Below are positions 1-31,100 of a stretch of 64,000 nucleotides of DNA, piece by piece (position 1 is the first letter of the stretch; each line of letters starts with the position of its first letter). The stretch is taken from contig JAYWIR010000029.1 of NCBI GenBank assembly GCA_036172245.1, forward strand, positions 124,001 to 188,000, in the 5' to 3' direction. The position numbers and the translations under genes were made by a program. The notes beneath the pieces were generated by a model. It did not search any database, was not told the origin of the DNA, and saw only the letters and a program-made list of their open reading frames with translations. This DNA is from Raillietiella orientalis (taxonomy: Eukaryota).

Positions 1-345
1 ATTATCTTGAGGAAAGCAATTTTCACCAACGGATCTGATTCCCGAGAGAGAATTTCTACTTCTACTGAAGCATTTATGTTAAACATTAAGATTTTGTTAT
101 AGTGTGGGGTGAGATTTCGTTATTTACAACAAGGAATGGTTTTAACAATCTGCCTAACAATGTACGGCTCACAGCGCAAATATTCTGTGATAATAATTGT
201 GCATCAGTTCATAGTATCCCTGACTTCCACAAGTACTATGGAGGTCAACAACTTTTGGGGCAAATAGACGACTGCACGGTACAGGCAGATGAACTAATGC
301 ATGACATGTTTTCATTTTTAGAGGTATTAATTGTATAATACAAAC

Positions 346-511
346 TCCATTTGGATCCATAAAGTACAGGGCATCCTCCATGATGCAACATCATATTGGA
401 TTCGCCTTTGGGGAGGAGATTGTACCAAAACACAGCGTCTCCCTTCCTAGGCCATGTGGCTACTCCGAGTAGACTGAAAGCCGTGGCACCTCCAGCTTCG
501 ACATCATTCAG
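346..511 (-). CDS. P4HA: P4HA coding exon 8 (distal His and 2-oxoglutarate-binding Lys); final exon lies beyond the window start
   Basis: Translation LNDVEAGGATAF...PRKGDAVFWYNL...HHGGCPVLYGSKW. TGTTTCAG acceptor, GTTTGT donor at 345. The eight exons total 1558 nt (519 codons + 1 nt). No xNKW terminal exon is visible in 1-345. Confidence 0.93.
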
Positions 512-563
512 CTGAAACAGAGATGAAAATAAATAGGGGGGCTTGTGCCTATAGACGTCTTAC

Positions 564-762
564 ATAGACCATGAAAGTAGCCAGGCGATCGGGGTGCTTC
601 AGAGGGGCATCGGGATGCAAGGTGTATGTACCTCCGACTCCATAGTTAGCAACTTGAAACAATTCGGAGGAGCGCTCCTCCAGAGTTTCCAAGCCAGTAG
701 CCAGGGAGATCCGCCTTGAAATGGTGTGAATCAAGGGATCTTCATTGTCTTCGAGCCAAGCC
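564..762 (-). CDS. P4HA: P4HA coding exon 7 (Fe-binding HxD)
   Basis: Translation AWLEDNEDPLIHTISRRISLATGL...ELFQVANYGVGGTYTLHPD...RLATFMVY. TTTCAG acceptor, GTAAG donor. Confidence 0.95.
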
Positions 763-1848
763 CTGAAACGCAGCTTCTCAAGTCGCAGTTCAGATTGGAG
801 ACTTCAAACTTTCTCCGAATCGCGCGCCCGAGTTTTCTAGAGTCGCATGAACGCTTCGCGCTGCTCCCCGAATACTAAGGTCCCTTGGGGTGGTTTTCGA
901 GGGTGCATTTTCCTTTCAAGTGCTGGCATCCAACTTCCTCGAGAACACAACAGGGAATGCTGCTGTCTCGCTTGTTTCCATGGTCGCTGGGGCTGCAGTC
1001 CACTTGCATCAAGGTCGCGGTAAGATCGCACATCATGGGAATCCCTCCAAAGATCTGATGATCGATCCGTTCGAATCAGTATGTCGGATGCTATTCGAAT
1101 GAGTAAGTCGCGACTGATAAGTCAGGAGCGAAGTACCGCCAACTCAGCAAGGGAGCGGAAGCAGGTTTCCGCTGCCTTCCAGAGTGGCTGAGTCACGATT
1201 CAGTTCTGGTCAGGAGAACTTGTCCTCCGCTCCTCGAATAAGAAAAGCTCCCGAAAAGATTACTCTTTAGGTGGCATCTCCGGAGACTCGAAGGAAAATG
1301 AGTGGAGACGTACAGGCGCCTTCCAGTTCTATCATCCCTGAACTCCCTTTTCTCAACTGCCCCTAAGGGGAGCTTCACCCACTTGGCGACCGGGAACGGC
1401 ACCAATGAGCGTACATGGTGGCCTCTCCACGATTCCAGGTCTGCTCTGACGTCAGAATTTTTCTCATTTCGGAATGACCACCAAGCCTCTTTACAGGAAT
1501 GGACCATGTCGTTCCTGTAGGTAAGGGAAGGTCAATATTTCTTCAAGGAACGTGTGACTACTCGATAGGATCGCCGTGCCTTTGCCGTGATTTCTCATCT
1601 TCCTCTTTCCCTACCGCAAGGGGAGATGGTTCAATAGGGTTTTCTTGCAAGGACTCTGGAACAGTCCAGAGCCATTGATGCTGTCATCCACAGGTCGAAA
1701 TTTGTCTGGCGACTATCCTGCTCTCCGGCTAAATCAGGAGTATCTGCACCTCCGTTGGTACCATCCGGATGGTGTGAGAGATGGGAGATCCTCTGCTCTT
1801 TCTCCCCCCTCCCCTCCTTCTCCGCTTTCCTCTTAAGCCCAGGCTTAC

Positions 1849-2096
1849 TGTTTGCTGGTCCTTTTCCATGACACGACGAAGTAGCCATATCTGTCGCTAT
1901 GGCCACTCCGGAAGAGGCGATGAGATGCCATCTTCTTGATGCGCTCCATTTCCTGCTCGTGAAGGAAATCGTGGAAAATGAGGATGTCGGGAGCGACGTG
2001 GACTTCTTCGACCTTCAGCGGAGCTAGAAAAAAGTACTCATGGCGCCGATAGCCGTAGCTGTACCAGCACCGTAGGTGGGAGTCGGCAGCCACACT
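1849..2096 (-). CDS. P4HA: P4HA coding exon 6
   Basis: Translation LRCWY...FFLAPLKVEEVHVAPDILIFHDFLHEQEMERIKKMA...RTSK is the start of the catalytic domain. CTTGCAG acceptor, GTAAG donor. Confidence 0.95.
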
Positions 2097-2150
2097 CTGC
2101 AAGAGAGGTCATGAAGTTTCCAGATTGAGGAAGAGGTGCCAACGTGCTAC

Positions 2151-2357
2151 CCTTATTTTGTCTCCCCTGCAGAGTCTCCGAAAGAGAAAGTTGGCCTCTT
2201 CCTCACGAACGGTGATGTCGTACAAAGGGATAGAACGGACGTCCGCTTTCGAGACGTTCTTATACTTTTCCTTCCGTAGGAGCTCCTCGTTGTAGGGAAT
2301 CGGGTTTGTCTCCCAGTTGGGACCTAAGGGACCTCGTTCCTCGAGGATCTTGTCATG
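2151..2357 (-). CDS. P4HA: P4HA coding exon 5
   Basis: TTTTTCTGTAG acceptor, 207 bp open frame HDKILEERGPLGPNW...FRRLCRGDKIR ending in the conserved LCRG motif. GT donor at 2150. Confidence 0.88.
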
Positions 2358-2619
2358 CTACAGAAAAAGGTAAATGGAGAAAAGGTAAGTGAAGGTTCTT
2401 GCTCCGTCGGGTCTAAAGGAGGGTGAGAAGGAATACCATCTCCTCTGTTGCAGACCAGGTGACCAGGATCTGACAGGAAGGAGAGAGGTTTCCGGCTTTC
2501 CTGGGATGCAGAACGTTCCTAATGAAATTCTCATCTCCAGGACAGCCGGATCTTCTCACTAAATTTCTCCAACCCTTCCTCCCAACCCTCCTTCCTTTTT
2601 TTTCTTTTCTTAAACTCAC

Positions 2620-2777
2620 GTATTTCAGCGCAGTATTCAGGAACGGCTCAACCTTTGAGGCTCCTTCTGTGTCGTTAGAAAGGAGAAAGAGTTTTTTCGC
2701 TTCCCGCAGGAGGTCCACCGACAGATGAAAGATATTCGTGTTGAAGGCATGCTTTCCTAGGAAACTTGCATCCAGGG
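2620..2777 (-). CDS. P4HA: P4HA coding exon 4
   Basis: TGTTGCAG acceptor. Translation (A)LDASFLGKHAFNTNIFHLSVDLLREAKKL...LNTALKY aligns with 'TAEDCFELGKVAY'. GTGAG donor. Phases are consistent. Confidence 0.85.
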
Positions 2778-4199
2778 CTGCAACAGAAACACCATCATCA
2801 GCAAGATATTGCTCTTCTTGGAGATTCCGAAGGAATCTCCAGAATGCCTGCGGTGCTGTTTCTTCCGAAAGGAAAGAGGAGAAGGCCTCGTTTCGTCTAT
2901 CTCTCCCTCCTTTTACTCCTCCTTATCCTTAGAAGCCCTTTCGAAGAAACTGCAAGACAGACTGTCTCCTGGGAAACAGCATCGACCCCGAGAAAGAGGA
3001 GAGAAGGAGATGACGAAAAGTGGGTTCGGACCTGCTTGTGGTCAGCCTCCCACGCCTTCATCCAGCAGTCGACAGCTGGAGAAGGGCACTGGAGCGATAA
3101 CCACGTGGAAGCTTCAAATGAAGATAAGAACTGATAGGGGAAGGGAGAATGACGCCTCTTGTTTGGTTGGAGCAGCAAGAGACAGATGGCGTATTAAGAG
3201 CTTCTCTTGAATGGTCCTGCAGGATTCGGATGGGGTTCTCCGAGAATCCCGGAACATTCTCTTGTCCACTCTCTCTGGAAAAAAGATCGGTTTGCTTAGA
3301 GAGGTGCCACCATCCGAGAAAGCGGGTGATTCCATGTGGCACCGGTATCTCGTATACGGTGCTTACTGCAATCGTTATGGAACTATCTGCTCCTACAGAA
3401 ACGGGGTGGAAAGGAAGCTGAACCCTGGAACTTGATGTTGGTACGAGATCACCGACATAACAAAGAGAACCCTCTGAAGGAGCGGTATCGATATCAGCTA
3501 AACATGGATACCATCCTCCTTCTCTCACCCTTAGTAAACGTAGCTCTTGCTGAACATTACCAGAAGCCAGGAGTTTCAGTACTAGCAGTCCCTCTACCAC
3601 CTTGATGCCTTTTTCGTCATTTGGGGACTTTCGGGAAAAAAATTCTGCTGGATCACAAATTATACCCCTTTGGAAACTGTTGAATGCTAGAACGGAATGG
3701 TACTTCGACTGAGGGACCGTTTCTGACTCCATAGTCTCGGACAAGCAGGCACCAGGAAGAGTCCTTTGGTGTGCTTGTGGGGACATCGCATAGCAAAATT
3801 AACATGAGGATACCTTCAAGCCCCTCCTTGATCGATGCTTCTGTGCTTATCCGTATGCCTATTCAGCACACTGAACCTCATCACACAGAGCTTCCTTCTT
3901 TCACCAAAGCCTTAAAGCACTGCTCATGAAGACCACTGTCTTAGGGCATGCCCTCTGTCTCCTTTTCCTTGAATTTGGTTCCATGGGGTAGGAAACCATG
4001 CGTTCCAAGCCAGTGGGTGTGGAAAGTCCACATTCTTTCTCTTCCTTCCTCTTTCGTTCCTTTATCTTGCGAAGGATCGCTGGAGAGTTCCTTCTTATGC
4101 AGAGGTGCCCTTGTGTTGAAAGCAGGAAGCATCGCAAAACAGATAGATAAAGTCCGATTCCAGGCATGCTATAGTATCCCTTTGCTCTTTTTCTTCCTT

Positions 4200-4727
4200 C
4201 TGAGACTCGAGATTTCCAGAGTAGACTTCTTAAGGTGTGCCGGGATAAAGAAGCCTCAAATCCAGAGTGAGAAAAACATCCTCCAGATTTTTGGAATCAG
4301 GGAAAGGGAAAGGAAAGCTTGCAGCTCAGTCAGACAGTCTCCTGGAAAAGGGATGAGATGTGGCGCAAGCAGTTTCGAAATTTTCACAATGGAGAAAAGG
4401 ACAAAGAGAGATAGAAAGACCGTTTGTGCTCTCTCCAGCCTGCAGGAGAGCACAGATGCCTTTGGCTTTCTCTTCCATTGGAGAATGCTTTCAGGATCTT
4501 TTGGATTTTTCACTGTAGCCCTAAAAGATGCTGATGATTTCTCTCCCGGAGTGGAAATACCAGACAATCTTCTCCCATCGGGAGGAGACTCTTCGTATTC
4601 ATTGCAGAAAGCACCGAGTAGGGTCTATTCCAGGGTACTCATTCCTTCCTGGAGGGAAGTTTGGTATCCCTCGCTTGAGTTCGCACATGCCAATCACATC
4701 CTTTGCGGCTTTTCGCTTCCCTTTTAG
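4200..4727 (+). mobile_element. Possible decayed LINE RT remnant in P4HA intron 3
   Basis: VRQS..FEIFTME..KDADD loosely follows the order of GVRQG..LF...ME..YADD. Confidence 0.3.
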
Positions 4728-4851
4728 AAAAGGGAAATAGGTATCTACGTGATCGTGGCGCTACTTTCCTTCCTTCTAAATGAGAACTGTAGTTCTTTTT
4801 CACCATTACCATTGAGAATCGGATAGGGGCCAATTTTAGAAGAGTTCTTAC

Positions 4852-5028
4852 CGGTCAGGGGGCCTGTAGCCTCATACACAGGACCTCCAAAGAACTGGAT
4901 TTTTCCATTCAGGAAGTCGGAGATGGGCATAGGGTAGGTGGCCAGCAGCCTGACAAGGGAGCTGGCTGCACCATACAAATCCTCATCTGTAGGAAACCGG
5001 TGGACCATCTCCGCAATGCGCCGAAGTT
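4852..5028 (-). CDS. P4HA: P4HA coding exon 3
   Basis: TTTTTGCAG acceptor. Translation LRRIAEMVHRFPTDEDLYGAASSLVRLLATY...GPLT matches the conserved FPxxEDxxGAAxALxRLQxTY motif. GTAAG donor. Confidence 0.93.
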
Positions 5029-5141
5029 CTGCAAAAAGAGGGAATGGCTTATGAGCGCGGTCACTGACAGAAGGAACGGTCTCGCCTCAGGAAATAAGTG
5101 GGTGAGAGGTTTCGTCTCTTCTGGCTCTAGTGCTAAGAGTT

Positions 5142-6833: not shown

Positions 6834-9800
6834 CTAAAGGATAAGCTGAACAGTAGTTCACAGATCCCACGCCTTTAAGAACACCAGCTGCAAACAGCTT
6901 CAGGGAAATAATCGGTGCGACGAATGTCATTCCCATCTTTCCATGACTTTGAATCTTTCATTGACTTCAGAAAGATACCGGCAGAAATTTGAGCGAAGGC
7001 TCAAAACTACAATTGTGGTTGAAGCTTTCAGAAACCTCGGATGCAAACAAAGATGCACAAATGTTAGGAAGCAACAAACTCTGCCACTGACTGTTGCCAA
7101 GACGGAGACCTCCTCCTTGGCAACAGTCAATGTCAGAGTTTGTGGCTTTCCTGATTAATAATTTTAAGGGTTGCTTTGTCTGCGACCCCCTCAGAGGTGC
7201 CTTGGAATGATTTTTCGAGCTCTGTTTGCTTAAAAGGAATCGTTTACTCCGGAAGGTCTCGACGCACTCGAACGACTCGAAAATGCATCACCCTGTTGCT
7301 CAAGGTGTTTTACCAAAGACCTCGTGCGGAGCATGTTGGCAACTTGCAGATGAACCTACGACGGAAAGTTTCATTCGTTTTTACTTGACCATTGCCTTGA
7401 AAGGAGAGATAGAGACAACACGCACTCGGCAACTCAAGGAGAAACATTGCGACAACATTGGTGTCCAAAGTTCACAGACTCTCAGCGGAAAGACGAAGAA
7501 AGAATAGCAATTTTCTACTGGCCTCTGGAAAGTTCAGGAGATCAGATAATTTACTTAATACGGAAGAAAATCTCCAGCTGACCAGAGTTGAGGCAGGGTT
7601 TTTTTTTCCCCGAGAGTTACCCGGAGCGAGGTGAAAACTTCCGAAGTGCCTTTTGGAAGTTCTCCAGATTGAGACACTGATTAAAGGACTTTGGAGATTC
7701 CTCCATAAGAGCGTAGTTGGGTCATGAACATAATTGCATTCGGGAGGCATTTCCTTCGAGTTGCTGCATAATGCGTCGATTGGACGCCTGACTCTTTATG
7801 TACAAGACATGCATTCGCGAACCTGATCCTTAGCCTATCACTGAGATGAGCTCACAGAGCATTTTCAGAGTGAAAACAGATATGACTACAGGAACAGTAT
7901 GATTAAAGCCTGTGTTTTCCGAGCTAGTGACCTCAAACTTGAAGCTTGGGAACTTTGTTCTGCGCTTACTCTTCCCAAGTTTCTTGTCACTTTTTCCATC
8001 TCCATACTCCGATGGTTTATAGAAGATCTTTACAAGGTCATCACGTATCGTCCTAACTCGATCGAGTCGAATTCAGTCGATTGCAACTTGCACGACTCTT
8101 GAGGCCCCGAAAACATCTTTTATCTGTTCCTCGAACTTTCCATTTCAAAAGGTCCTCTGCGACCTTTCTTGTTTCAGGAAACGATCGTAGAAACTTTCAC
8201 TTTCTCAACAAACTGTATCGAGAAAGCTTACGGTTCCTAACGATGCAAATGAAGCAAAAATGGATTCAAAGATGAAACCACTTTGCCTTCGTGACAGTCT
8301 TCATTCAGCTCGCTTTGCTGGCTGGAAATTCATTATCTCTGGCAGGATCTTAGTTCTCTCTCTTTATGTATTTCCCACGCTCAAACTCTAGATGGAGATC
8401 ATTTTACAAATTCTGGTACGTTCTCTCGTTCACTGAATTTCTGCTCTGCCGGCTGTACCTATCTACCGGGTCTCATTTTGAAGCGAATCAACCAGTTGGA
8501 AAAAATCGATACCCTTGCAGTTTGAGAATTTTCGAGATGAGCTGAATTCATTCTCCCCCGAATTAGGAAATAATCTTCCTCTTCCTCCTCCCACCCAAAT
8601 GGTATAACGCGGGTCCGTAATGTTCATGAAATCTGCCTCGAAGACCGAACAACTTTTAAAAATGAAACTCTTCCCACTGGGGCTATTGCTGAATCACACG
8701 AGAACTCCCAGACATGATCAAATATCCGAATGCTCACATAGGAGCAGTAATTTTCCGAGCAAACTTTCTGAATGGATATTTTTCCCGCTAAGAGATTTCA
8801 GAGGTGATTTCCCTAATAGTACTCAGAGCATTTGCCTTTCCTCGTAGCAGGATTACCAGTTTTAGGGAATTATGTGACAGAAATTGACTTTTTTTTTGCA
8901 TCCTTGTTGCATGAAGAGCGATGTGTATCATGCGAAAATCAATGAAAGGAAAGAATAGTAAATGGGTAGGCACAAAGAAAGAGGATATGATTCTCTGCAA
9001 TATCCCAACAGCATCTGGATTTTCATCAAGAAAAAACGAATATACAAACCAAGAAAAATTTGTTCCGCCACTGAAGCAATTACAAAAGCACGGAATTAGC
9101 CCTTATACTGGCAGATCAGTAAGTGGTACTTGATGACCTGAATGCCTCAGATAGTTGCGGACGCTCGGGAACATTAGTGTGCACGCATGGACACATGTAA
9201 CACGGAAAGTGGCTGCCAATCAGCGGATGAAGAAAGGATTTCGAATTTTCGAAACGGTATGCTGTCCGAACAGAGAAGCATGAATAAAGCAAGAAATTAA
9301 AGAAACATGGTCTCATGGAGTCCCGAAAGAACTGTGAACTGTCTTCAGGATGTTGAAACACCCGCGACCATGGGAACCGCGGAGTGACCTCACAAGCAAG
9401 GCGGCGGATTTTCAGTAATCCCTAAACTTTCGTTGTTCGAAACCCTTTCGAGATAGTTCTGATCGGAACAACGTCATCTAGAGTGCTGCATTTGACTTCG
9501 GAAGCATTCACGTGATTACTGGGAGATGATGGAGATTTGATTTTCTTTGCTTAGTTGGCATCGATGAACATGGGCAAGCAATCGATCGCTTGCTTACAGT
9601 AGCCGAATGGCCACTCCAGAGCCAGGAAAGCGGCAGTTGAGATTGGACGTGAATAGTCTTGAAATAAAGATCAGCTTTCGTTAAAATCCGAAAGGGATAA
9701 TATTCACGCTGGATTTCTTGCTCGAGGAGTGCACGTGAATTTTATCTTGAATGCAAAATAAATCGGAATGCCTCATAACTCTCCATTTCCGAGCAAGTAC

Positions 9801-10619: not shown

Positions 10620-12674
10620 CTGAAAACAGAACGGAATCATTATAAATTGTTCCCGATGAGATTGAAGCGTCAGTAATCGAGAAACCTGAAATCGGCTTGG
10701 GAAACAAAACGGGGGAGGAAGAGGATAATTCCGGGATATTTTCTTGTCATCCGTCAAGACCTGGGATTCTTACCCGAGAGTTTAAGGACGAAAATTAAGG
10801 ATGAAAAGAAAATTCCGGCAGCAGAAGTCTCGAGTGCCATCAGCATCATTAATGATGTCATCGGAACACTTGTCAATTCTCCTCACAACCTTATGACTAA
10901 AGTTTCCTTTCGAGAAACTTCTACTCGCCACGTTTCTGTCATTGAAGTTGTGAATTCAGGCAAGCATTCCGGAACATTGATATTCGTCGCACTCGCTTTC
11001 TGAGGAATAACAGGACTGCCAGAGACAACTGGATAGAGATGTAGAAGGACCCGTAAAAACTCTAGTCTGAAATGAGGCTGATGAAGAATTGGGATTGATT
11101 CGGAGAGTTTGCCTTCTGCGCTTTGAGCCCCTCGTCAGAATTCACCAAGCTGAGTGTTTCATCCTTCGTTCATTATGGAGTGTTTAGGCATTCTCAGAAA
11201 GTATCTCCAAGATTACATAATTAATAGTGATTCAAAAAACTGATTAGTGATCAAATGATCACTGTTTATTTAACTTAGCGTCATCACGACTGAATACTGC
11301 TATCATTTCTTTAAGGAGTTGATTATCGGACGAAGCAATCAAGACTTCAGTTGCAAATGGTTCAAGTGATCTGGAGACTGCACATGTTTCATCTTTAGTT
11401 TCATCTCATGAAAATCAACGGTGCCATTGCAGTCGTTTAAAGAGGAAAAAGATGGAGTTACTTCGATCAAAGCAGAGCAACAGATGCATCGGTGATTCAC
11501 AAGTGTCCAATAAAGTGGTGAAAGTGAGAGGGCGCGTTGAAAAATGCCACTGGAAACCAACTTCTCCCTTAGCTCCTGAACGTCACTTGGATAACCAGGA
11601 ATTAAAACCTTCGAGCCCCGTGGCCACCAGGATTCAAAGCCCGTCCATTTTGTTGTTTTGTCATGTTTTATGTTTTGGTTTCATTAGCATCTGGTAATGC
11701 TTTGGACACATTTTGAGAACAAGGCGGTCGGACATCCATGCTTTAATCAGATAATCTCATGTGGAACCATATATTCGTTCTTGGGACTTAGTTCTTCTCC
11801 AAAACAAGACGAAACAAAGAGACCCAGGAAGACAAGGACTCATATAGTCAGCTTTCTGTCCGCCTCATTTTTCAAGACTCCATTCCCTTTCTAGGAGCTT
11901 CTTTCCCCACAGCTCACTCAAGAACAAGCTCGGGAATACTGAGCAGATTTCCGCAACAAACTTCTGATCGCTGAGGTTCATATGAATTGTTCACATAACA
12001 CTACAGATGCCTTGCTCGTTCCATTTGGATTTTAGAGCATTTTTCTTCCCGTTCCCTTCATAACCACGAAAGTTCTGAAATCTTATCCAGCATATTCCAT
12101 GAAGGAAAAAAAAAATTGGATAAGCAGTATAACTCTGCTGCTCCAGCTGTTTGTAAAATACTGCAAAGTATATGAAATATTTCACATTCGCCATCATGTC
12201 AGCAGCATCCTCTTCGGAAACTGAAGAAGAAATCTGTTGTGACAACAATTCAAACCTTCGTCACTGAGGAAAGAATGCAGTTTTGTGTCCTTCAGTCCTT
12301 AGCACTATAAAACACTTAGAATGCGAATCTTGCTGCAAAGAAACTGAAACACAGAACAAAGAACTGCGGCAGATTTTGTCCCTCGAATGCTGATTGTAAA
12401 CACTGTACTGGGGTCTAGAGCTCCATAGTGTCATCAATAAATTCAATTTTCGTGCTTCAGAACCATCAGCATTATCAGCGGATAAAACGAGCGAAGGAAC
12501 TAGAAAGATAAGGGCGTAAAGAGGCACTAAAAACACTCAAAATCACACCGATGTATGCAGTCTGCTGACGTTTCATAAAGCAGACAACAGGGACAGAAAA
12601 AGACAAAGATTTTAAAAGAAAATGGCTACACCCGTTGCATGAGAATACCAACCACTTTCGAACAACAGCTCGCT

Positions 12675-14867
12675 GAAGAACGGGGGACCTTCGTCTCCCG
12701 CCCGCTCCCCCGGCGCGACCGTCGTCCCTTTTTCTTTTCGTCGTCGTTGTTGCTGTTGCTGTTTGTTGCGGTCTTTTTCAGCACCGTTTCTCCTCGCTCT
12801 TCGTCGTTCCCTTCCGCCTCCACCACGGCCGTCGCGCAACCATCCTCCCGCGGAGGCGCACCGTCCTCCGGAGCGTCCGCGAAAACGCGATCGGGAAGCA
12901 CGCAGAGACGAGGAAACGAAGCTCCGGACAGGAAGAAGAAGAAGAAGAAGAAGAAGAAGAAGAAGAAGGCAGCGGCACGCACGAACTGCAACGCGGGAGA
13001 CGGCGTCGTTCGGGCGTGAATCCGCTGGCGGCGAAGGGAGCGCTGCCGCCGCGTCCGCAACCAACACATCGGTCGATCGATGATGGGACGGACGATCGAC
13101 TGCAGCGGCCCCCGCTCCATTCTCTCCTCGGCCCGAATCTGGCCGCTCGCGAGCCCGGGCGGCGGCCCCTAGCGCGGGCCGACCCCAGGTTCGCCTTCTA
13201 CGAGACCCCGCGTCGAGCGGAGCACAAGCGCGACCGTTCGCACGCCAGGTGGACACGTTCCGCTGCCGTTGGCAAGCAGCGAGCGCGCGGGCACGGCCGT
13301 CTCCATCAGGCGGTCGTGCCTGCGCGCTCGCTGCTCCGGGCGCAGCCGAGCATCCTTCTTCCTCCCGCCCGCATCCGTTCCGAGGCCAGCGGAGCGGCGG
13401 CCACGGGACGGCGGCGCGGATCGGCCAGAGGCTGGCGGTCGGGGCGATCGGCTCTGCCGCCGCCTTTCCCGAGCCAGCCCACCGCAGCAGATGGGTGCGG
13501 TTTCGGCGCAGCCGGGACTCGGCGCGCTGCTCCGAAGACGTCTCTTGGAGCGGAGCGGAGAAGGGTCAGGGGAAGGGTAGGTTTCATGGTTTTCGGCGGC
13601 GCGTGACCCAGTCATCCGTGCCGTTCGCTCGTTGGTCGTCGGTCACACGACGAGAGCGAGTTCGGTTGTCGCGCGGCAGCCACCTGCGCGTCGGAAGCGC
13701 CGCCGCTTTCCGCTGGCGACAGCGTGCTGCGGCCTGCCATCTGCCGCCGCGTCCTCGGAGAGGCACGCGCGCGTTCTCTCTCTCCGGTCGGATGCGTTCT
13801 GGCAAGCCGCTCGGACGCCTTTTGCCTCCCCTCCCTCTTCCTCCGTTCGACGGAGGACCCTGTCGCGCCTCCTCGCTCCCTTTGGCTCGCTTGCGTGACG
13901 CTCGCGCGGCGCGGGTACGACGCGAGTTTGCCGGAAGCTCGGCCGCGGGCCAAAAAGTCGAGGAGAGGAGCCGACGACGACGGATGCTGCCATCTGGTCT
14001 TCGGCACGCGTGCGTGCGTTCGCTTCCTGGGCGACGACCGGGGCGGCTGTTTGCGGAGTCGGCACGACAACTTGTGTGAGCTGGAAGCCGCAGCAGGGTG
14101 CTGCGCGCAAGGGGATGCCGCGTTGTCCGGAGTCCGGTGCGGGCCACGGACGAGTCAGGGAGCGATGGGGACGAATGGAGCAGCCGAGGCGCGACGTGCG
14201 TGCGCCTCCGGGGGCCTCGCTGCGCTCCTGCTGCTTGTCCGTCGACGCGTGCACTCCCGGTCGAGCATGTGCCAGTCGAGCTTCCGCCGGGGGGCCGCTG
14301 CCACTCCGCAAGGCGGACGACGACGGACGCAGCCGGGATCGCGGATCGGATTGACGCTGACGGAGGGATTCGGACGAGAATTCGGAACCGGACGAGCGGC
14401 GCGAGGGGGGGACGCCTTCTTGCGGCAAACCGGCCGCGCATCGTCTGCGGTGCAGTGCGCAGGAAGAGGAGCAGGTGGAGGAGGCTCCAAAGTCCGTATC
14501 CGTTCCGTCGCTTCCCTTCTCGGTACAGCTCGTTCGGTGCGGAGCCGGCCGGGTCGTCGGTGCTCCGCGGGACGTGCGGAAGCGGGAAAAATCCTCTGGA
14601 TCGTCTGCGCGGCGCCTTCGCGCTTGCAGCTGGCGTTGCTCGGGATCGCGGCGGCGGCTGGGTGACGCCGAGAAAGGGAAGCAGAAGAACGCGCTTGGAG
14701 GTGGGAGGGGAAACACTGCTGCTCCGCGATTGCGGAGCATTTCTCGACCAGCCGTGTGCAGGCGCGATGTGGGAGCCTCCCTTCCGGACGGGAGATCGCG
14801 AAGGATGCAGCAACGTGCGGCGCCTGAGCTCCGAACTGGATCCGGAGAGCTGCACTCCCTAGGAAGA
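12675..14867. mobile_element. Non-autonomous GC-rich 2.2 kb element, copy 1 (in P4HA intron 1)
   Basis: Near-identical reverse complement of 22049-24259. Sharp rise in GC and CpG against the flanks. GAAGA at both ends. Internal (GAA)n tract at ~12932-12968. Confidence 0.85.
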
Positions 14868-20833: not shown

Positions 20834-21369
20834 TCGGTGCCTGAATGGTATGTAACGCTGCCTCACGTCTCAAGTCGTTCTGAGAAATCCTTTCAGCTCG
20901 ACACCAGGAAGGAGACGGTGATCGACTGCATCAAGGAGATACAGACGATGGGAATTCCTGGACAACAACCAAGGGAATCCCACGCGAGATCCTCTTTGCG
21001 AGATGACACCGTCCTGAGGAAACTGGAACGGCGTCATGGTACACGCTGCTGCGCATCGGAAAGCGCACCGGCAGCGTGCCAGAAGACACGCGAAGGAAAA
21101 AAGGGAAAATACGCTTCCAGAGCGCTTCCTGGCTTTCACTCGCGGGAACCCGAGCGTCAGTTCTCGTGATTGCCCGTGGGAATCCCAGGCTGGCAAGAAC
21201 GGCGATGCTGTCAACGCTGAAGGAGGTGGAAGTTCCCAGGAACGAACCAGCTCAGCAGGCCGACGCTGTGTCGATGATCTCATGGTGAACGATGAGCCAG
21301 AACGTCAATTGGGTTTCGAACGACCGGACGCAGACGCACACTGCCGGATCTCCAGAAGAACGGGAGACC
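20834..21369 (+). repeat. ~540 bp dispersed direct repeat, copy 1 (probable decayed LINE ORF1 remnant)
   Basis: Highly similar to 46204-46762. The translation includes IPGQQPR followed by Cys/His remnants, resembling the Tx1-type ORF1 YPGQP/zinc-knuckle region. Confidence 0.7.
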
Positions 21370-22048: not shown

Positions 22049-24259
22049 TCTTCCTAGGGAGTGCAGCTCTCCGGATCCAGTTCGGAGCTCAGGCGCCGCA
22101 CGTTGCTGCATCCTTCGCGATCTCCCGTCCGGAAGGGAGGCTCCCACATCGCGCCTGCACACGGCTGGTCGAGAAATGCTCCGCAATCGCGGAGCAGCAG
22201 TGTTTCCCCTCCCACCTCCAAGCGCGTTCTTCTGCTTCCCTTTCTCGGCGTCACCCAGCCGCCGCCGCGATCCCGAGCAACGCCAGCTGCAAGCGCGAAG
22301 GCGCCGCGCAGACGATCCAGAGGATTTTTCCCGCTTCCGCACGTCCCGCGGAGCACCGACGACCCGGCCGGCTCCGCACCGAACGAGCTGTACCGAGAAG
22401 GGAAGCGACGGAACGGATACGGACTTTGGAGCCTCCTCCACCTGCTCCTCTTCCTGCGCACTGCACCGCAGACGATGCGCGGCCGGTTTGCCGCAAGAAG
22501 GCGTCCCCCCCTCGCGCCGCTCGTCCGGTTCCGAATTCTCGTCCGAATCCCTCCGTCAGCGTCAATCCGATCCGCGATCCCGGCTGCGTCCGTCGTCGTC
22601 CGCCTTGCGGAGTGGCAGCGGCCCCCCGGCGGAAGCTCGACTGGCACATGCTCGACCGGGAGTGCACGCGTCGACGGACAAGCAGCAGGAGCGCAGCGAG
22701 GCCCCCGGAGGCGCACGCACGTCGCGCCTCGGCTGCTCCATTCGTCCCCATCGCTCCCTGACTCGTCCGTGGCCCGCACCGGACTCCGGACAACGCGGCA
22801 TCCCCTTGCGCGCAGCACCCTGCTGCGGCTTCCAGCTCACACAAGTTGTCGTGCCGACTCCGCAAACAGCCGCCCCGGTCGTCGCCCAGGAAGCGAACGC
22901 ACGCACGCGTGCCGAAGACCAGATGGCAGCATCCGTCGTCGTCGGCTCCTCTCCTCGACTTTTTGGCCCGCGGCCGAGCTTCCGGCAAACTCGCGTCGTA
23001 CCCGCGCCGCGCGAGCGTCACGCAAGCGAGCCAAAGGGAGCGAGGAGGCGCGACAGGGTCCTCCGTCGAACGGAGGAAGAGGGAGGGGAGGCAAAAGGCG
23101 TCCGAGCGGCTTGCCAGAACGCATCCGACCGGAGAGAGAGAACGCGCGCGTGCCTCTCCGAGGACGCGGCGGCAGATGGCAGGCCGCAGCACGCTGTCGC
23201 CAGCGGAAAGCGGCGGCGCTTCCGACGCGCAGGTGGCTGCCGCGCGACAACCGAACTCGCTCTCGTCGTGTGACCGACGACCAACGAGCGAACGGCACGG
23301 ATGACTGGGTCACGCGCCGCCGAAAACCATGAAACCTACCCTTCCCCTGACCCTTCTCCGCTCCGCTCCAAGAGACGTCTTCGGAGCAGCGCGCCGAGTC
23401 CCGGCTGCGCCGAAACCGCACCCATCTGCTGCGGTGGGCTGGCTCGGGAAAGGCGGCGGCAGAGCCGATCGCCCCGACCGCCAGCCTCTGGCCGATCCGC
23501 GCCGCCGTCCCGTGGCCGCCGCTCCGCTGGCCTCGGAACGGATGCGGGCGGGAGGAAGAAGGATGCTCGGCTGCGCCCGGAGCAGCGAGCGCGCAGGCAC
23601 GACCGCCTGATGGAGACGGCCGTGCCCGCGCGCTCGCTGCTTGCCAACGGCAGCGGAACGTGTCCACCTGGCGTGCGAACGGTCGCGCTTGTGCTCCGCT
23701 CGACGCGGGGTCTCGTAGAAGGCGAACCTGGGGTCGGCCCGCGCTAGGGGCCGCCGCCCGGGCTCGCGAGCGGCCAGATTCGGGCCGAGGAGAGAATGGA
23801 GCGGGGGCCGCTGCAGTCGATCGTCCGTCCCATCATCGATCGACCGATGTGTTGGTTGCGGACGCGGCGGCAGCGCTCCCTTCGCCGCCAGCGGATTCAC
23901 GCCCGAACGACGCCGTCTCCCGCGTTGCAGTTCGTGCGTGCCGCTGCCTTCTTCTTCTTCTTCTTCTTCTTCTTCTTCTTCCTGTCAGGAGCTTCGTTTC
24001 CTCGTCTCTGCGTGCTTCCCGATCGCGTTTTTGCGGACGCTCCGGAGGACGGTGCGCCTCCGCGGGAGGACGGTGCGCCTCCGCGGGAGGATGGTTGCGC
24101 GACGGCCGTGGTGGAGGCGGAAGGGAACGACGAAGAGCGAGGAGAAACGGTGCTGAAAAAGACCGCAACAAACAGCAACAGCAACAACGACGACGAAAAG
24201 AAAAAGGGACGACGGTCGCGCCGGGGGAGCGGGCGGGAGACGAAGGTCCCCCGTTCTTC
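22049..24259. mobile_element. Non-autonomous GC-rich 2.2 kb element, copy 2 (inverted, upstream of P4HA)
   Basis: The ORF set mirrors copy 1. Differences I could see: two substitutions, one fewer GAA unit and a 21 bp tandem duplication near 24047-24090. TCTTC at both ends. Confidence 0.85.
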
Positions 24260-27200
24260 CATGAGTTGTTCTTTCGCGTTGTTTGCCTGTGTCGGCGTTA
24301 GAGGAAAGAGTGTCGTGCTCGTTGGCGTCTGAGAGGGATTTTCCGGAATAGCTTCGTTTCGCTGCCCGATTGATCTTCTGTTTTTCCTGTGGGTAGTCGG
24401 TTTGACCGCACGCTGCCTCAGGGCAGCGGAAGCTCAGGACGCACAATTGCTTGAGACGTACGCAGCTAGGCGCGTCGAATTCGGGTGCTCTGCGACGCGC
24501 CTGAGCGGGCGGTGCTCGCAAAAGGGAGTGCAGGAGAGCAGAAAGGTAGTGTTCCCTGACCACGGCCCTTGGGACCGTTCACTGAAATCCAACTGGTTTT
24601 CTCACAGGAGCGGACGGAAGGTTAAGGTCGCTCGCATAGGGAGGGGAAAGGGCTTTTCTTTATGCATGCTTTTAGAGGGAAAGATCCCGGAAATGAGGGG
24701 CCTCCCTTTCGCCTTCCAAGCTTCCCGGATCTCTGCGAAGGCGTGATGTTTCACTTCATTGGTTGGGGAGGGAAAGGGGATCCAAGTGGAACAGAGGGAG
24801 GGCTTCATTCTGGATCTGCGAGGTGGAAGGGGATGGAGGAGAGCTCCTGACGGGATTCAGGAACTGAGGAGGGCTCCTCGGGGGGATTGAAAGCTGCTCA
24901 CCGCCCGCCTTCCTCTGGATACAGCAGCCGCCTCTCGTTGGGACCTTGCGATGCAGTCCACTCGCTCGTTGCTTTTTAGGGGTGGTGAAGCCTGCTGTCA
25001 ACTTCCGAGAGTCTGGAAGACGTTTCGTCCGTTAAGGAAAAGAAGGTCCTTCCTCATTCCTCGCTCCCCTTTCCCCCCTATCTGCTCGGCGCCTTCTGCA
25101 GCTGAGCAGGTATGTGGTGCGCCCCTCTTGAATCCGCTGGCGAGGAGACGACCTCCCACAGCGGAAAGATGGGAGATAAGGCTCGCAACGGGACTGCGAG
25201 CACACCCGCTTTCTCCAGGGAAGCACCACGCACGGGGTGGCCCGTTCCTCACGGAGGGCTTGAACAAACCGGGGAAGAGGCAAAAGAGGGAAGACGGTCC
25301 GAGAGATCGAATGGCAAGGCCTTTCGTTGTTTCCTTACTGATCCAGAGCCGCGGAGGAGGATTCCTCAAATCACGAGAGCGCCATCTCGAGGAAAAGGGT
25401 GAGAGGTCTGGTAGTCACAGAAAAGGGCTCGGTGTGCATCTTGACAGAAGTCCTTCTTCCAGTGAAATCATTTTCTGGGTAACGTAGTGTCGGAAGAAGA
25501 AGGAATGGACACGAAGCTCTTGGGAACGTCTTTTCTTAAAGAAACGAGTTTTTTTGGAGAAGAGGAGGAGGGAGGGAAAGAGGAGGGGAGGGGTCAAATC
25601 ATAAAGCCCTACGGTAAGCGCGTGTCTTTCCCACTTTCTCATGAGCGGAAGAACAATCGAAGATTCCATCAGCAAGTCATCTTGAAAGAGTCCTTGAAGA
25701 AGTCCACCTTGCCCGTGAAACGGAGACGCGATCAATAGCATCATTCTACGACGCGGCAACGGAAGCCATAGATCGAACTCCCGGGCAACGGATGCTTATT
25801 ATTTATCCTTGAGTTCCGTAGTCAGCCCTCTGGATGTCCTTTGCGCAAAGTTTTCTGTGTTCTTCCATTTTCTGAATTCCGAAGCATCGCAGGCTTCTTC
25901 CGTTTCCTTGATCTTCATTTTTCCCTCCACTTCGTTTTTCTTCCCGTCGGGAAGCTCCCTACCGCTTACTTCTTCTTCCTGTTCCTCCTCCAGAAAACCG
26001 AACCCTTTCCGGACACCGATGCATATTTTTGGTCCATTCCGTTGTTTCTGCTAGCCCCCTTTCTCGATGATGCAGTTTCGGGGCATTCGAACGACATGTT
26101 TCAGATCTTCGAGGGAAAGGAAGGGATGTAACGAAAAGCTGAAACTTGCTCTGGTTAGCCTGCCCCCAGCCTCTCTCTGCGTTCATCACAAAGAGCGTGA
26201 ATAGGAAGGATCTTGCAGATGTGTTTAAGGGAGAAAAGGCCTAAGCGTGTTAATCGGCAGGGGACTGCAGCGACCCATTCCCTCTTGTCTTTCCCAGGTT
26301 CTGGCAAAATCGCATTCCCCTGAAGAGTCGGAAACAGATTTCCTTATTCAGGAAAGGCGAAACCAACGTCTCCACAGTGGGACAAGAGGGAGTCCTGAAG
26401 CGAGAAGAGACGAGCGGGTTCACGGGATTTACTGCTCGAGGTCTCAGAACACTCGCTCCTTTGGGTTCGACAAGAAACTCGCGCTCTCTTGTGCCACTTC
26501 CTTCCATCTCGTTTTCGGTCCAGATTGTGTTCCCAGAGTCGCGCTTCTTCCAACTTGTCTCCAGCTCGGAGGCATGCACGCACATCATGGCCTGAGATTG
26601 TGGCCAATCCCGAGGATGTCTGCCTGCCGACAGCAAAATCTGTCTTGCAGATCTCTTTTCAATTCCTCCTCTGGATCATCCTTAAGGATCTGTTCAGTTT
26701 GAAGAAGCGTTATCTTCGTTGCTGAAGTCCTCAAAGGGTTAAAACTTTACGCACCCTTTGTGATCCAGTGAATAGAGATGCGCGTAGGAGCATTCCGCTG
26801 TAGGTGTTTTCTTAAGGACTGCTGCATTAAAGCAACAATCAGTCATATCCTAAAATTCTGGCCATGCCAGAATATCATCTTGGACATCCTGACATTGGGT
26901 ATGTTTGGAGGACTGCAATCTCAGTTCCAACAGTTGCCACTCTGTGCCAAATTGTGACTTCCGTAAGGTATACCTGAGTATCTAATCCTTCGGCGAAGCG
27001 CTGGCAGCGAAGAATTTCTCTCATTGCTGCCGCGCATCTGTCACATGATGGCGGGATTCTCTTTCTCCTCGAGTCAACCGCCTTCACTTTTGGAAGCCTA
27101 CCCTTGGATATCCTACCTCCTCAAGAACTGGAATGTTTGGCGGCAGGAGACATTCGAGTCTTGAGTTGCCACCTTGAAGATGAGCTCAGAAGAACTTCGT

Positions 27201-27379
27201 CGTCTGAGGAACTTTTCTCTGCAACCCGCTGGGAGCTTTCCATCGGGACTGGACGAAGTGGTCCAGTCTGTACATCACACCTCTTGCCGCAGAGCTGTCT
27301 GCCCTCAGGACAAACAATGACGGCGGGGTGAAAGTTCTGCATCATTGGAGGACTCACTAAACTCTTGGACGGCTCGAGG

Positions 27380-28875
27380 ACTAGAGAGTTGATGAACACC
27401 GCTACTCCTCTTTCCCGAGCAAAGGGACTGTTTTGGTGGTGCAAACTTTTCGAGTGTGCCCTCGGAACAATGTTGTGATTCCTCCTTTGTCCTCGAACAA
27501 ATCTGGGTTTCCGTTACACGGGAAACAGGATGTGCTGCTGTTTCTGTACTGAGGTTTTCAGTGCAACTATCGTAACACCTGTTTTCCGGGGGAGTTACGT
27601 CCCCGAACTGCTTAAAATAAGGAGCAATTGGATCGCTTCCTCCCCTACTATTAAACAGAGGCTCTCCATGACCTGTGGCGGAGGCTGGCTTCAGCACCCC
27701 TGCACCCCGAGGACATTGTTGTGAGCTTTCTGGGGAGATTCTTCGTGAGCGACAATATTTTGACTGGCGCGGTGGTTTCACACCCGGGTGCGCCGGGGTG
27801 TTTATTCTCTTAGAGGAATCGTTGGAGCCGATGGCCCACCAATTCCAATTGTTACACTAGAAAGAAGGGGAAGCCGGAGAGGTCCATCACGTCCACGAAG
27901 GCAAAGGGGGATGAAACAAAAATAGAAGATGAAAACAAACTATAACAAACAACAAAAAAACAAAAAGCAAAAATTAGTTGGGGGGAAGGGAAGGGATCAC
28001 ATTTCGTGGTGAGGCCTCTGTATCTGTTGAAGGATGCCTGAGAGCTCCTCCTTCTCCTTTTCCAAGTGGGACCATCTCAAAGCTATCTGCAGGAAGCGGA
28101 TGGCATGCAGGACAGCCCCCCTGTCGCTCTGGTCTCTCTCGGCGTCGCACTTCGCCGCGACGACACCGCGCACGCAGCGCAGCGCTGCTATTGCGGCTGC
28201 GGGCGTCATGGCTTCTCGCACGAAGAGGGGTCTCAAAGAGTCTCTGGGATCGTCCACTGGGTGCAGAAGAGTCGCAGCGAAACGTTTCCACAAGCCCCGG
28301 AGGGTGAGATACTGCACTATGAGGTGGGGAAAATCTTCCTTCTCTCCACACCTGGCACAGTTCGGCGATGCGCTTCCCCTCGTCTCGTTTAGTGATAACG
28401 GCGCGCGTTGCACGGGAGACCTCAGTGCAGTATCAGCATCGCCGATTGCGGACATTTGTGGAGAAGCAGCTTTCTGTCCATAAACACGGGAGCACCGTGA
28501 TTGCAATGAGATCGTGCATCCGCGCCATCGACACAACCCGCAATGTGCTGGAATCTCGGGAGCAGCAAAAGGGGAGCACCCACATGGCAGACACCTTGAT
28601 GAAGATGGCTCATCCGAAAGTCGTCAGGGAGAGCTTCACCATCGAGAGTCGGTTGCAGGAATGAACGAGCGGCTCATGCCAAAGACTCCTTGTTCCTTCC
28701 ACTTTTTATTTTGCTCATTCATTGTCCCTTCCCTCTCGCTCCGGACTTCAAAATCCAGCCTGAGTGCTGGTGAATCCTCCTGCTAGGCCTAATTTTTTTT
28801 TGCTTCTTGAAAATTGATTTCTTATATTGTTTGTTTGTTTATTTTAAATCAACACCACGGAGTTGCCACATTAAC
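27380..28875 (+). mobile_element. Older plus-strand LINE 3' fragment, split by the 27776-28480 insertion
   Basis: 27660-27770 matches ~39970-40080 (ctgtggcggaggctggc...ctgcacc..gaggac). 28490 onward matches ~40081 onward (attgcaa...tgcatccgc). Degenerate 3' motif near 28847. The 5' boundary is approximate. Confidence 0.65.
27776..28480 (-). mobile_element. 3' fragment of the same LINE family, nested inside a plus-strand copy
   Basis: CARCGEKEDFPHL..LRGLWKRFAATLLHP. Terminal AATAAACACCCCGGCGCACCCGGGTG. Confidence 0.8.
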
Positions 28876-29500: not shown

Positions 29501-30281
29501 GCAGCAGGCACTGCAACCACATGACTGGAGGGACAAGTTTACCTGGAGACTGCGAGACCTGGGGAACGGAAGCATGCATCTCGCGCCTCCTGCTGGACTG
29601 GGACGCTCTTCGCCCGGGTTGGAAGCGCTTAGCAAGGACACGGACGACGACGACACTCCTGAAGAGCTCGTGCGGTGCGATGTTTTTTCGTCCCATATGC
29701 GACTTCACCGCACGCTGCAGCCACCATCGGCCATCCTGATGATACGGCCGTCTCCGACAACGACGAGGCGGCCTTCCACTCACCCCAGGGGCGTCGGGAA
29801 AGGAGGACGGAAGGGAAGCTACGGCGCTCATCGGGAAAGGACCGAGGGTCGGGAACACTGGAGACCTGCCTAGAGAACCTTCCTAGCCCCCATCCCCGGT
29901 CGTACCCCTAATTTTTAGCGCCTCCTCCTTCTGGTCGCACCGGAACGCCCCTCCCTCCTGAACGAGAGTGCGTATCGCAATGGACCTCTCTCGGTTCGCT
30001 TTTTATTGAACACCCACTTTTAGCACGGGCGTTCATTTTCGGCAAAAAAACAAAAAAATGCTCTGGAGTGACCTTCTGATGCCGAACTTCCTGGCCATTC
30101 ATCGAAAATGAAGGGATGAAAGGTACAATAAGAAGGGATCTGTTTGCTCGAAGGGAAAGTTTCTGGGGACAGAGCCAGATGGAGGGAGAGAGGCCTGCGT
30201 TTCCCAAAATCAATGCGTAAATGGAGGGTGGAGCGGTCCAGGATCACGGTAATGAACATGACTGCCAGTTCCCGAGACAGG
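29501..30281. mobile_element. 781 bp non-coding repeat element, copy A
   Basis: Near-identical reverse complement of 43927-44707 (mirrored ORFs, coordinate sum 74208). CAGG near both ends. Confidence 0.8.
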
Positions 30282-30289
30282 CCTGAACT

Positions 30290-31100
30290 CGAGAAAGGGA
30301 ATCGACCCTATCTTCGATTCAAGCCACTCTGCTCACAATTTTCCTAGACTTCCACAAATTTGTATTCACATGCTGAACTGGACCATCTTGTTCGCTCTTC
30401 GCATACAGAGAATAGCGATTGTGAACTTTCCGGGATGATGGTCGCGTCCTTCTTCCAAAACCCGATACTCATTTCCACCACTTCTTCCATCGCCGGTGAT
30501 CGCACATAGGAAAGTCTGCATAGCTGAGTAAGAAAAGCAAGTCCTGACTGACCGGCAGTTTCAAAACATGCTTGGTTCCTGCATTTTGTTCTCTTGCCAG
30601 GTAACGAATTGCTTTTTGGAAGAAATGAAACTGCAACTTCCAAGTCAAAGTCTATGCAGGCGTGCCATGTTTTCCTCGTTGGTCTCCTTTGTTCTCCACT
30701 TGACTCTGCCTGTCATTCTTCCCTTCCGTCATGCTTGTGTTGAGATTTGGAAGCTTGCCTTTACATGGACAGATATCATGGACAGCAAGCAGATGCTGAG
30801 CGTGATAGTTTCATGCCACCCTCAGAGTTCCTAGAGACAGTTTTCTCCCATATAAAAAGCAAACACTGATGCTCTGCACTGTATCTTCGCCATGCCGTGC
30901 CTCACAGAGTCCAGATTGCTTTCTTCTCATCACTCTCATAATAGGTTTCTTTTCTGTGATCTTCAACCATGGATCCTTGCAATGGGCTGGCGGTTCCATT
31001 AGGGTTTTGATGCTTCTTCTTCTAATGTCAAACGAGCTGTCCACTATGGGAACCTTACTTCACCTGAAGGGACTTTTATTATTGTCGGGATGAATGCGAG
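30290..31100 (-). mobile_element. Possible decayed hAT transposase remnant
   Basis: Fragments TNEENMA and CEERTRWSS resemble the hAT motifs HTGENIA and TRWNS, in the expected order, across stops and frameshifts. Confidence 0.3.

Follow-up and report, generated by a model that had tools for sequence, protein, structure and literature searches.

An inverted pair of 2.2-kb repeats with a one-sided flank match, possibly formed by out-and-back template switching

Two inverted, nearly identical copies of a GC-rich 2.2-kb repeat are present in the 64-kb stretch of Raillietiella orientalis DNA analyzed here (the window). GAAGA is present at both ends of each copy, and next to it, on the left side, the two copies share a short, partly identical block of flanking sequence. 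This left-flank match exceeds what is usual by chance and is unlikely to be accidental (P = 0.002 to 0.014 per flank, depending on the null model), with n = 2 and a block chosen post hoc. The reading that we tentatively prefer, with a probability of roughly 0.4, is that the pair (pair A) represents a template and a local inverted copy generated by out-and-back template switching of the FoSTeS/MMBIR kind. We infer the mechanism from the features described below, and likewise the direction, with copy 2 as the template and copy 1 as the new copy.

Structure and composition of the repeat pair

The features of pair A are as follows.

12675..14867, plus strand: copy 1 of the 2.2-kb repeat (GC 0.68, CpG observed/expected 1.27)
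12675..12679, plus strand: left-junction GAAGA of copy 1, representing either microhomology at the junction or what looks like a duplication of 5 bp
13275..13335, no strand assigned: near-perfect hairpin of 61 nt within the repeat (-68.6 kcal/mol, z = -9.1)
14863..14867, plus strand: right-junction GAAGA of copy 1, beyond which identity with copy 2 ends abruptly
22049..24259, minus strand: copy 2 of the 2.2-kb repeat, inverted, with one more 21-bp unit and one fewer GAA unit than copy 1
24260..24860, no strand assigned: outer flank of copy 2 (GC 0.50-0.62 in 60-nt steps; CpG observed/expected 1.23 over 24260-24459)

The inverted arms are separated by 7181 nt. The complete set of differences between them comprises two substitutions (12881 and 12926), one 21-nt tandem unit (at 12842), and one GAA unit (12932-12934). 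All of these are confined to no more than 260 nt from the left end, which is the proposed entry junction, and the 1933 nt from 12935 to 14867 are 100% identical. The probability that both substitutions would fall within the left-end 260 nt by chance is 0.013. Inward of the GAAGAs, the termini read ACGGGG...CCCTAG. Since GAAGA is the same in both copies, target duplication, element termini, and microhomology are indistinguishable as its origin.

The GC content of the repeat (0.68) compares with 0.42-0.54 across its boundaries, and the right boundary of both copies is marked by a sharp fall from about 0.65 to 0.42-0.45. On its outer side, copy 1 is flanked by sequence with a GC content of 0.38-0.45, whereas the sequence on the outer side of copy 2 is nearly continuous in composition with the repeat, which suggests that copy 2 may be the native template.

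Neither a third copy nor a fragment of the repeat was found within the 64-kb window, and both repeat termini were without a match in two metagenome scans of collections that hold no animal genomes. A 23-mer match to a Sphingomonas contig in a prokaryote genome scan was dismissed as chance, as the similarity is limited to those 23 bases. Within these 64 kb, pair A amounts to two copies with the same boundaries and no partner sharing their ends. A composite element with the 2.2-kb repeats as its inverted ends was rejected, because a direct duplication is absent outside and GAAGA is found at the inner ends too. Nested insertion into an older repeat was also rejected, because the flanking sequences occur only once in the window and are mutually unlike past 14 nt.

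The left-flank block

The similarity next to the left GAAGA involves two blocks.

12661..12674, plus strand: left-end flank block of copy 1, AACAACAGCTCGCT, identical to the copy 2 block at 9 of 14 positions
24260..24273, minus strand: left-end flank block of copy 2, AAGAACAACTCATG

The initial annotation had reported a shared one-sided motif beside GAAGA with 9 of 11 matching positions (-4 to -14), and we confirmed both its coordinates and its letters: the sequence is cgAAcAACAgCTCgctGAAGA at 12659-12679 and, after reverse complementation, gaAAgAACAaCTCatgGAAGA at 24255-24275. Over the 14-nt block, 9 positions are identical, and with GAAGA included the left junction reaches 14/19 (74%). The alignment agrees that the block lies outside the near-identical body, and the right flanks are as dissimilar as had been described (4/14 and 6/30 matches). 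Flanks further out than the edges have no residual similarity (P = 0.13 to 0.9). The pattern AANAACANCTCNNNGAAGA, with at most one mismatch, occurs at just these two sites in the window, where shuffles would lead to an expectation of 0.07.

The flank match was compared with several null models. When 330 other GAAGA sites of the window were paired at random (299,107 pairs), at least 9/14 matches occurred with P = 0.0033, and at least 9/11 at -4 to -14 with P = 0.0002. A scan statistic ranging over window lengths of 8-20 and offsets of 0-6 gave P = 0.0019 per flank and 0.0037 for either flank. Shuffling within the flanks, which keeps their own A/C-rich composition, gave 0.0055 for 9/14, or 0.014 when the 14-nt window was allowed to end anywhere 0-6 nt from the boundary.

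Given these values, it seems unlikely that the flank similarity is a coincidence between two A/C-rich sites, however the copies arose. The two-copy sample, the post hoc selection of the block, and the A/C-rich flanks all favor coincidence, and under the most lenient null the probability is 0.014 per flank, or about 0.03 for either flank. Against it, the stricter nulls give 0.002-0.004, and the edges of a neighboring repeat pair (pair B, described below) are likewise similar, at P values of about 1e-5 and 4e-4.

Evidence bearing on a mobile element

A rather doubtful explanation of the pair is a non-autonomous transposable element that inserts at GAAGA (duplicated or terminal) with a one-sided upstream preference for AAnAACAnCTCnnn. 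Such an element is consistent with near-perfect identity that ends at the same boundaries in both copies, each flanked by GAAGA, with the composition jump at these boundaries, with the flank match (P = 0.002 to 0.014), and with the near-identity itself, which suggests recent copying. Target-primed reverse transcription by a sequence-specific endonuclease would be compatible with the asymmetry, a site-specific recombinase less so. In target-primed reverse transcription, the recognized bases upstream of the first nick remain at the 5′ flank alone. A degenerate reverse-transcriptase fragment is also present in the window, evidence that this genome harbors retroelements. Both non-LTR and DNA transposons with specific targets have been described (PMC4640811 and PMC3706591).

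The absence of transposon hallmarks from the repeat argues against this explanation and for template switching. No terminal inverted repeats (TIRs), LTR, poly-A tail, or microsatellite tail was found in the repeat, its terminal folds, including a 3′ stem-loop, are not significant (z about 0), and no Rfam family reaches its gathering score. No Pfam family exceeded its curated cutoff in the 13 distinct long frames scanned (9 inside the repeat body and 4 crossing an end, with the minus-strand frame at 12612-13565 left out); one junction-spanning frame had low-complexity matches alone, far under the cutoff. Codon periodicity is absent except in the trinucleotide-repeat part. A 424-amino-acid frame has no relatives in 1.84 billion representatives, and a 317-amino-acid frame that exits the element into the flank has none among proteins of 174-555 residues. 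The 64 kb without a third copy or fragment, the crowding of copy differences at one end, and the two unrelated neighboring pairs with equally ragged edges, which a family-specific target code does not explain, also count against a transposon.

Specific element classes were considered and rejected. For a Helitron, CTAG follows a small right-end stem, but a 5′ TC preceded by a host A is lacking, as is a T after the CTAG, and the stem fold is not significant. The TG..CA ends of a solo LTR are absent, and a ribozyme or group II intron is without an Rfam match. A literature search on GAAGA as a target duplication returned nothing relevant.

It is very unlikely that the 2.2-kb unit is an animal mobile element choosing its sites by the asymmetric ~19-nt sequence AAnAACAnCTCnnnGAAGA, recognized either by a sequence-specific enzyme (recombinase or endonuclease) or by a trans guide from an unseen autonomous partner. 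The initial annotation had proposed a target consensus that might represent a recombinase half-site or guide-like base pairing. In the search within the element, the best complementary segment matches 9/14 positions per target, compared with a null mean of 9.6 (150 random 14-mers), and 12/19 and 11/19 with GAAGA added. No segment of the element resembles the flank motif beyond chance. Compared by eye, the putative recombinase arms within the repeat agree with the flank block at 4/14 positions right of the left GAAGA (reverse complement) and at 2/14 left of the right GAAGA, and inverted half-site symmetry is absent. These comparisons also weigh against a transposon that selects its target by this motif. 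The motif stands as real, one-sided, outside the body, and unlikely to be chance, while the half-site and guide are not supported by these comparisons, nor is a consensus over many insertions, as the 64-kb window holds no third copy. If a transposon were nevertheless responsible, the finding of an animal element with an asymmetric 19-nt target would hold real interest for targeted integration, and pair B would, if this site-choosing element were real, be a second one with the same geometry (core, 3-nt gap, and about 11 nt) and a different target.

Known systems resemble the repeat in part. Target-specific non-LTR retrotransposons (R2, Utopia, and Tx1-type), and the non-autonomous elements mobilized by them, share a defined insertion sequence, asymmetric recognition upstream of the nick, and identical 5′ ends in full-length copies. 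However, these elements are known to target multicopy genes or microsatellites, in contrast to the unique sequence of the two sites here, and the present repeat has no tail, significant 3′ stem-loop, or end-sharing partner in the window. Crypton-like tyrosine-recombinase elements lack terminal repeats and integrate by crossover at a short shared core. The repeat is similarly without TIRs, and GAAGA could be such a crossover core with the flank block as a recombinase arm; it differs in the absence of a recombinase gene and of half-site symmetry and in its poorly matching arms (4/14 and 2/14). Guide-directed systems (IS200/IS605 subterminal guides, IS110 bridge RNA, and group II intron EBS-IBS pairing) are prokaryotic or organellar. 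They also have a one-sided 10-20-nt target adjoining the insertion point, but the repeat contains no complementary segment beyond chance and no group II intron or other Rfam family.

Proposed template switching and the neighboring repeat pairs

Under out-and-back template switching, the site at 12675 would have read ...GCTCGCTGAAGATTCCTAG... before copy 1 arose, with the copy at 22049-24259 already there. A growing strand that had just finished ...AACAACAGCTCGCTGAAGA near 12679 would quit its template and pair with the similar ...AAGAACAACTCATGGAAGA on the opposite strand, about 9-12 kb off. It would then synthesize 2.2 kb to the next usable GAAGA and re-pair via those 5 bases at the exact place of departure. 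GAAGA would represent junction microhomology, and the 14-nt block would represent microhomeology at the priming junction. Such switching is expected to leave GAAGA flanking the new copy without a transposase and imperfect 14/19 similarity on the priming side alone.

Several features of pair A are consistent with this mechanism. The pair is inverted, 7.2 kb apart, and limited to two copies in 64 kb. On one side, a perfect 5-nt match ends a 19-nt block that is 74% identical; on the other it stands bare, and the differences cluster near the entry junction, followed by 1933 perfect nt (P = 0.013 for both substitutions). The near-continuity of the copy 2 outer flank with the repeat, set against the GC content of 0.38-0.45 outside copy 1, points in the same direction. 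Microhomeology at replicative join-points is reported to cover 7-14 bp at 70-90% identity and to occur at about 32% of join-points, with microhomology mostly at one end of the block (PMC6902434). Microhomeology is taken there as ≥5 bp at ≥70% identity, and the left junction block matches at 14/19 (74%). Templated insertions are described as inverted copies of nearby templates with flanking microhomology (PMC8421209), and copy 1 would likewise be an inverted copy of a nearby template, with microhomology at both junctions and microhomeology at the left one. Further similarities to the FoSTeS/MMBIR insertions of these two reports (PMC6902434 and PMC8421209) are the perfect short match that ends a 70-90% identical block, the distinction between a priming and an annealing side, and small errors near the junction.

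Other features count against template switching. As for native context, the outer flank of copy 2 stays GC- and CpG-rich and the flanks of copy 1 do not, but GC drops exactly at the right boundary in both copies; such a change is not expected of a native template at its exit point but is expected of an inserted foreign unit. The copied segment, itself a compositional island, is long at 2.2 kb compared with most templated insertions (PMC6902434 and PMC8421209), and its template is 9-12 kb away, whereas the events described in PMC8421209 are of read length with templates within 100 bp. The setting also differs from that of the known events, being an invertebrate-like genome as opposed to a human disease or cancer locus. 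In addition, a site-specific 5-bp target duplication would equally give GAAGA beside both copies, and the count of two copies holds for the 64-kb window.

Two further repeat pairs are found nearby.

29501-30292 and 43916-44707, inverted: pair B, 13.6 kb apart, with a core of 762 nt that is 100% identical
20834-21369 and 46204-46762: pair C, with a perfect center and mismatches and indels nearing both edges

The edges of pair B are ragged, with 12/14 matches at the left (P about 1e-5) and 11/16 at the right (P about 4e-4). CAGG occurs near both ends, and past one end a 3-nt mismatch is followed by GAACnCGAnA. Within the same 35 kb, pairs B and C both display an identical core, short and partly identical ragged edges, and a 4-5-nt direct repeat. 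The recurrence of these edges favors template switching in pair A, as it points to an imperfectly pairing copying mechanism over a family-specific target code.

Perfect cores with differences toward the edges in pairs A, B, and C could also result from an old inverted duplication or repeat pair whose interior was homogenized by gene conversion, with GC raised by bias and the 14-nt block left as an unconverted, diverged end. The inverted and closely spaced arms are in line with such a history, and so is a GC content that is raised exactly over the identical part of pair A and more weakly in pair B (0.56 versus 0.42-0.50). We nonetheless regard it as distinctly unlikely, since there is no gradient: at the left, identity of about 99% gives way to 64% and then to random levels within 14 nt, and at the right, 100% identity is followed immediately by random levels. 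The outlying flanks retain no similarity (P = 0.13 to 0.9), and the presence of GAAGA at the two ends would have to be coincidental, with odds of roughly 1 in 1000 multiplied by the positional freedom.

Amplification chimeras are typically inverted and have short junction homology. An artifact of this kind, or interiors equalized by collapse or polishing of the assembly, appears highly improbable. Read misassignment in polishing can yield perfect interiors with differences near unique flanks, as seen in all three pairs, but two clean junctions per copy require consistent read support, and the 36% mismatch over the 14-nt block far exceeds any true divergence that polishing erased elsewhere.

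If template switching is the correct explanation, pair A would be a clean natural case of a kilobase-scale out-and-back event in an invertebrate-like genome. It would imitate a transposon insertion, down to what look like a 5-bp target duplication and a target motif, and would thereby be a useful caution for repeat annotation; the mechanism itself is not new.

As a separate observation on pair C, within a wider alignment that scores under the null's 95th percentile, the 15-mer that ends repeat C (21355-21369) matches the left terminus of the 2.2-kb repeat at 14 of 15 positions (P = 0.004).

Anatomy and flanks of the inverted 2.2-kb repeat

The two copies of the 2.2-kb repeat (pair A) are opposite in orientation with 7181 nt between them, and both ends of each copy read GAAGA.

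12675-14867, plus: copy 1
22049-24259, minus: copy 2
12661-12674, and 24260-24273 minus: flank block, the 14 nt outside the left GAAGA of copies 1 and 2
12842 / 24042-24100: tandem repeat of a 21-bp unit, 2.8 units long in copy 2 and one unit shorter in copy 1
12932-12968 / 23948-23981: (GAA)n run, 12.3 vs 11.3 units, with the one-GAA difference at 12932-12934
13275-13335 and 23581-23641: internal hairpin of 61 nt, almost perfect (-68.6 kcal/mol, z = -9.1)

Base-by-base comparison revealed two substitutions between the copies (12881 and 12926), while the tandem unit and the GAA unit are the sole length differences, and the 1933 nt at 12935-14867 contain no difference at all. The repeat is 68% G+C with a CpG observed/expected ratio of 1.27, compared with 45-49% and 0.73-0.83 in the DNA around it. 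The GC content falls by ~0.2 precisely at the right boundary of each copy. In the outer flanks, GC and CpG stay high beside copy 2, but GC is down to 0.38-0.45 beside copy 1.

Re-reading of the sequence bore out the letters and coordinates of both flanks in the initial annotation, as well as its block of 9 matches in 11 nt and its unlike opposite flanks. The left flanks agree at 9 of 14 adjacent bases, all within the 11 nt at -4 to -14, with no alignment possible beyond the block; outside the right GAAGA, the agreement is 4/14 and 6/30. The 9/14 match has a P value of 0.0033 among random pairs of the window's other GAAGA sites (n = 330) and of 0.0055 when each flank is shuffled within its own A/C-rich composition, or 0.014 when the shuffle admits any 14-nt window ending 0 to 6 nt from the boundary. 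With a scan statistic that allows for the choice of length and offset, P is 0.0019 for a single flank and 0.0037 when a match at either one counts. The flank similarity, at two sites picked after looking, is thus probably not chance; a coincidental match, which the post hoc choice of only two sites would favor, is improbable.

Target-site and transposon readings

The initial annotation took the flank block for an extended one-sided target motif and suggested a recombinase half-site or guide-like targeting. The element holds no guide-like segment: its best complementary match to either flank 14-mer is 9/14 (null mean, 9.6, from 150 random 14-mers), and its best same-sense match is 9-10/14 (null mean, 9.9). 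The targets of copies 1 and 2 differ at 5 of 14 positions, and the bodies are virtually identical. A half-site predicts similar arms inside the element beside the core, but the arms found there agree with the flank block, by eye, at 4 and 2 of 14 positions. A guide or recombinase acting in trans is conceivable, but nothing supports it. The flank match itself stands; a target consensus is a possible but unsupported interpretation of it.

The GC drop at the right boundary of both copies is what insertion of a foreign unit would give, yet a site-preferring non-autonomous transposon is rather unlikely, as the usual marks were looked for in the 2.2-kb repeat and none was found. The repeat has no terminal inverted repeats; TG..CA ends, a poly-A tail, and a repeat tail are all absent from its ends, and no fold there is significant on either strand (z ~0). 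No Rfam family reaches its gathering score over the repeat, and the internal hairpin has only sub-threshold microRNA-family matches (best, 41.8 bits; gathering score, 78). Among 13 distinct long frames scanned with Pfam (9 inside the body and 4 running past an end; 12612-13565 minus left out), no family scored above its curated cut-off, and one junction-spanning frame has low-complexity matches only, far below it. Two long frames have no protein relatives in large libraries, codon periodicity is absent except over trinucleotide repeats, and the window contains no third copy or fragment.

Local repeat pairs and a proposed template switch

Self-comparison of the window identified two other local repeat pairs.

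29501-30292 and 43916-44707: pair B, inverted, 13.6 kb apart, 762-nt core at 100% identity
20834-21369 and 46204-46762: pair C, direct, 25 kb apart, centre perfect

The differences in pair B are confined to the terminal 14-16 nt, where the left edge matches at 12/14 and the right at 11/16 (P ~1e-5 and ~4e-4, respectively, among random pairs). CAGG lies near each end; on the right it is followed, after three mismatched positions, by GAACnCGAnA. Pairs A and B have a common one-sided layout, in which a perfect match of 4-5 nt is separated by a 3-nt gap from a partly identical stretch of ~11 nt. In pair C, mismatches and indels, including one of 17 nt, increase towards either edge. The three pairs are unrelated and, within 35 kb, have exactly two copies apiece and share ragged edges, which favors local copying or recombination over three transposon families with extended target codes.

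We tentatively suggest, with a probability of roughly 0.4, that pair A arose as a local inverted duplication copied from a template and that the flank block is microhomeology at its junction. Most of the features would follow together from an out-and-back template switch. A strand fresh from copying ...CTCGCTGAAGA would pair with a nearby look-alike, ...CTCATGGAAGA, on the opposite strand; synthesis would run on and drop off past another GAAGA, and these five bases would re-pair with the departure spot. The annealing would account for the inversion, for a 3' GAAGA without mismatch, and for the restriction of the upstream block, 74% identical, to the priming side, and the re-pairing would leave GAAGA on both sides and the acceptor sequence without loss. 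Copy 2 would be the template, since its outer flank, and not that of copy 1, is GC- and CpG-rich.

One study reports microhomeology of 7-14 bp and 70-90% identity at about one-third of replicative join-points, with microhomology mostly at one end of it (PMC6902434), and another describes templated insertions as inverted copies of nearby templates with microhomology on their flanks (PMC8421209). It counts against a template switch that, compared with most catalogued templated insertions, the pair A copy is large and its template distant. Early synthesis after a template switch is error-prone, and the clustering of differences fits this: all in pair A lie <=260 nt from the proposed entry junction (P = 0.013 for the two substitutions).

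The GC drop at the right boundary of both copies speaks against a template switch, as it is unexpected of a native template. Long-term biased gene conversion enriching the arms in GC would produce such a drop, although the corresponding reading, that the flank block is the end of an old, still converting repeat which conversion has not reached, is itself doubtful. An assembly or amplification artefact is highly improbable.

Other features of the window

248-5086, minus: collagen prolyl 4-hydroxylase alpha subunit exons (Pfam P4Ha_N, 5e-8; 2OG-FeII_Oxy_3)
39234-39776: degenerate fragment of a reverse transcriptase (RVT_1 below cut-off, E = 3e-4)

The best solved relative of the prolyl 4-hydroxylase exons is P4HA2 (9e-19). 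Old repeats of 65-86% identity surround the reverse-transcriptase fragment (27254-27714, 37841-38515, and 39759-40257) and, together with it, are probably decayed LINE-like copies. CpG depletion across the window is only mild. The prolyl 4-hydroxylase exons, the reverse-transcriptase fragment, and this mild depletion together give the window the look of DNA from an invertebrate animal. The terminal 15 nt of repeat C (21355-21369; GAAGAACGGGAGACC), preceded by ATCTC plus 2 nt, agree with the opening 15 nt of the 2.2-kb repeat at 14 of 15 positions (P = 0.004), with no significance in a wider local alignment. An 80-nt local palindrome at 7069-7148 is 85% identical to its reverse complement.
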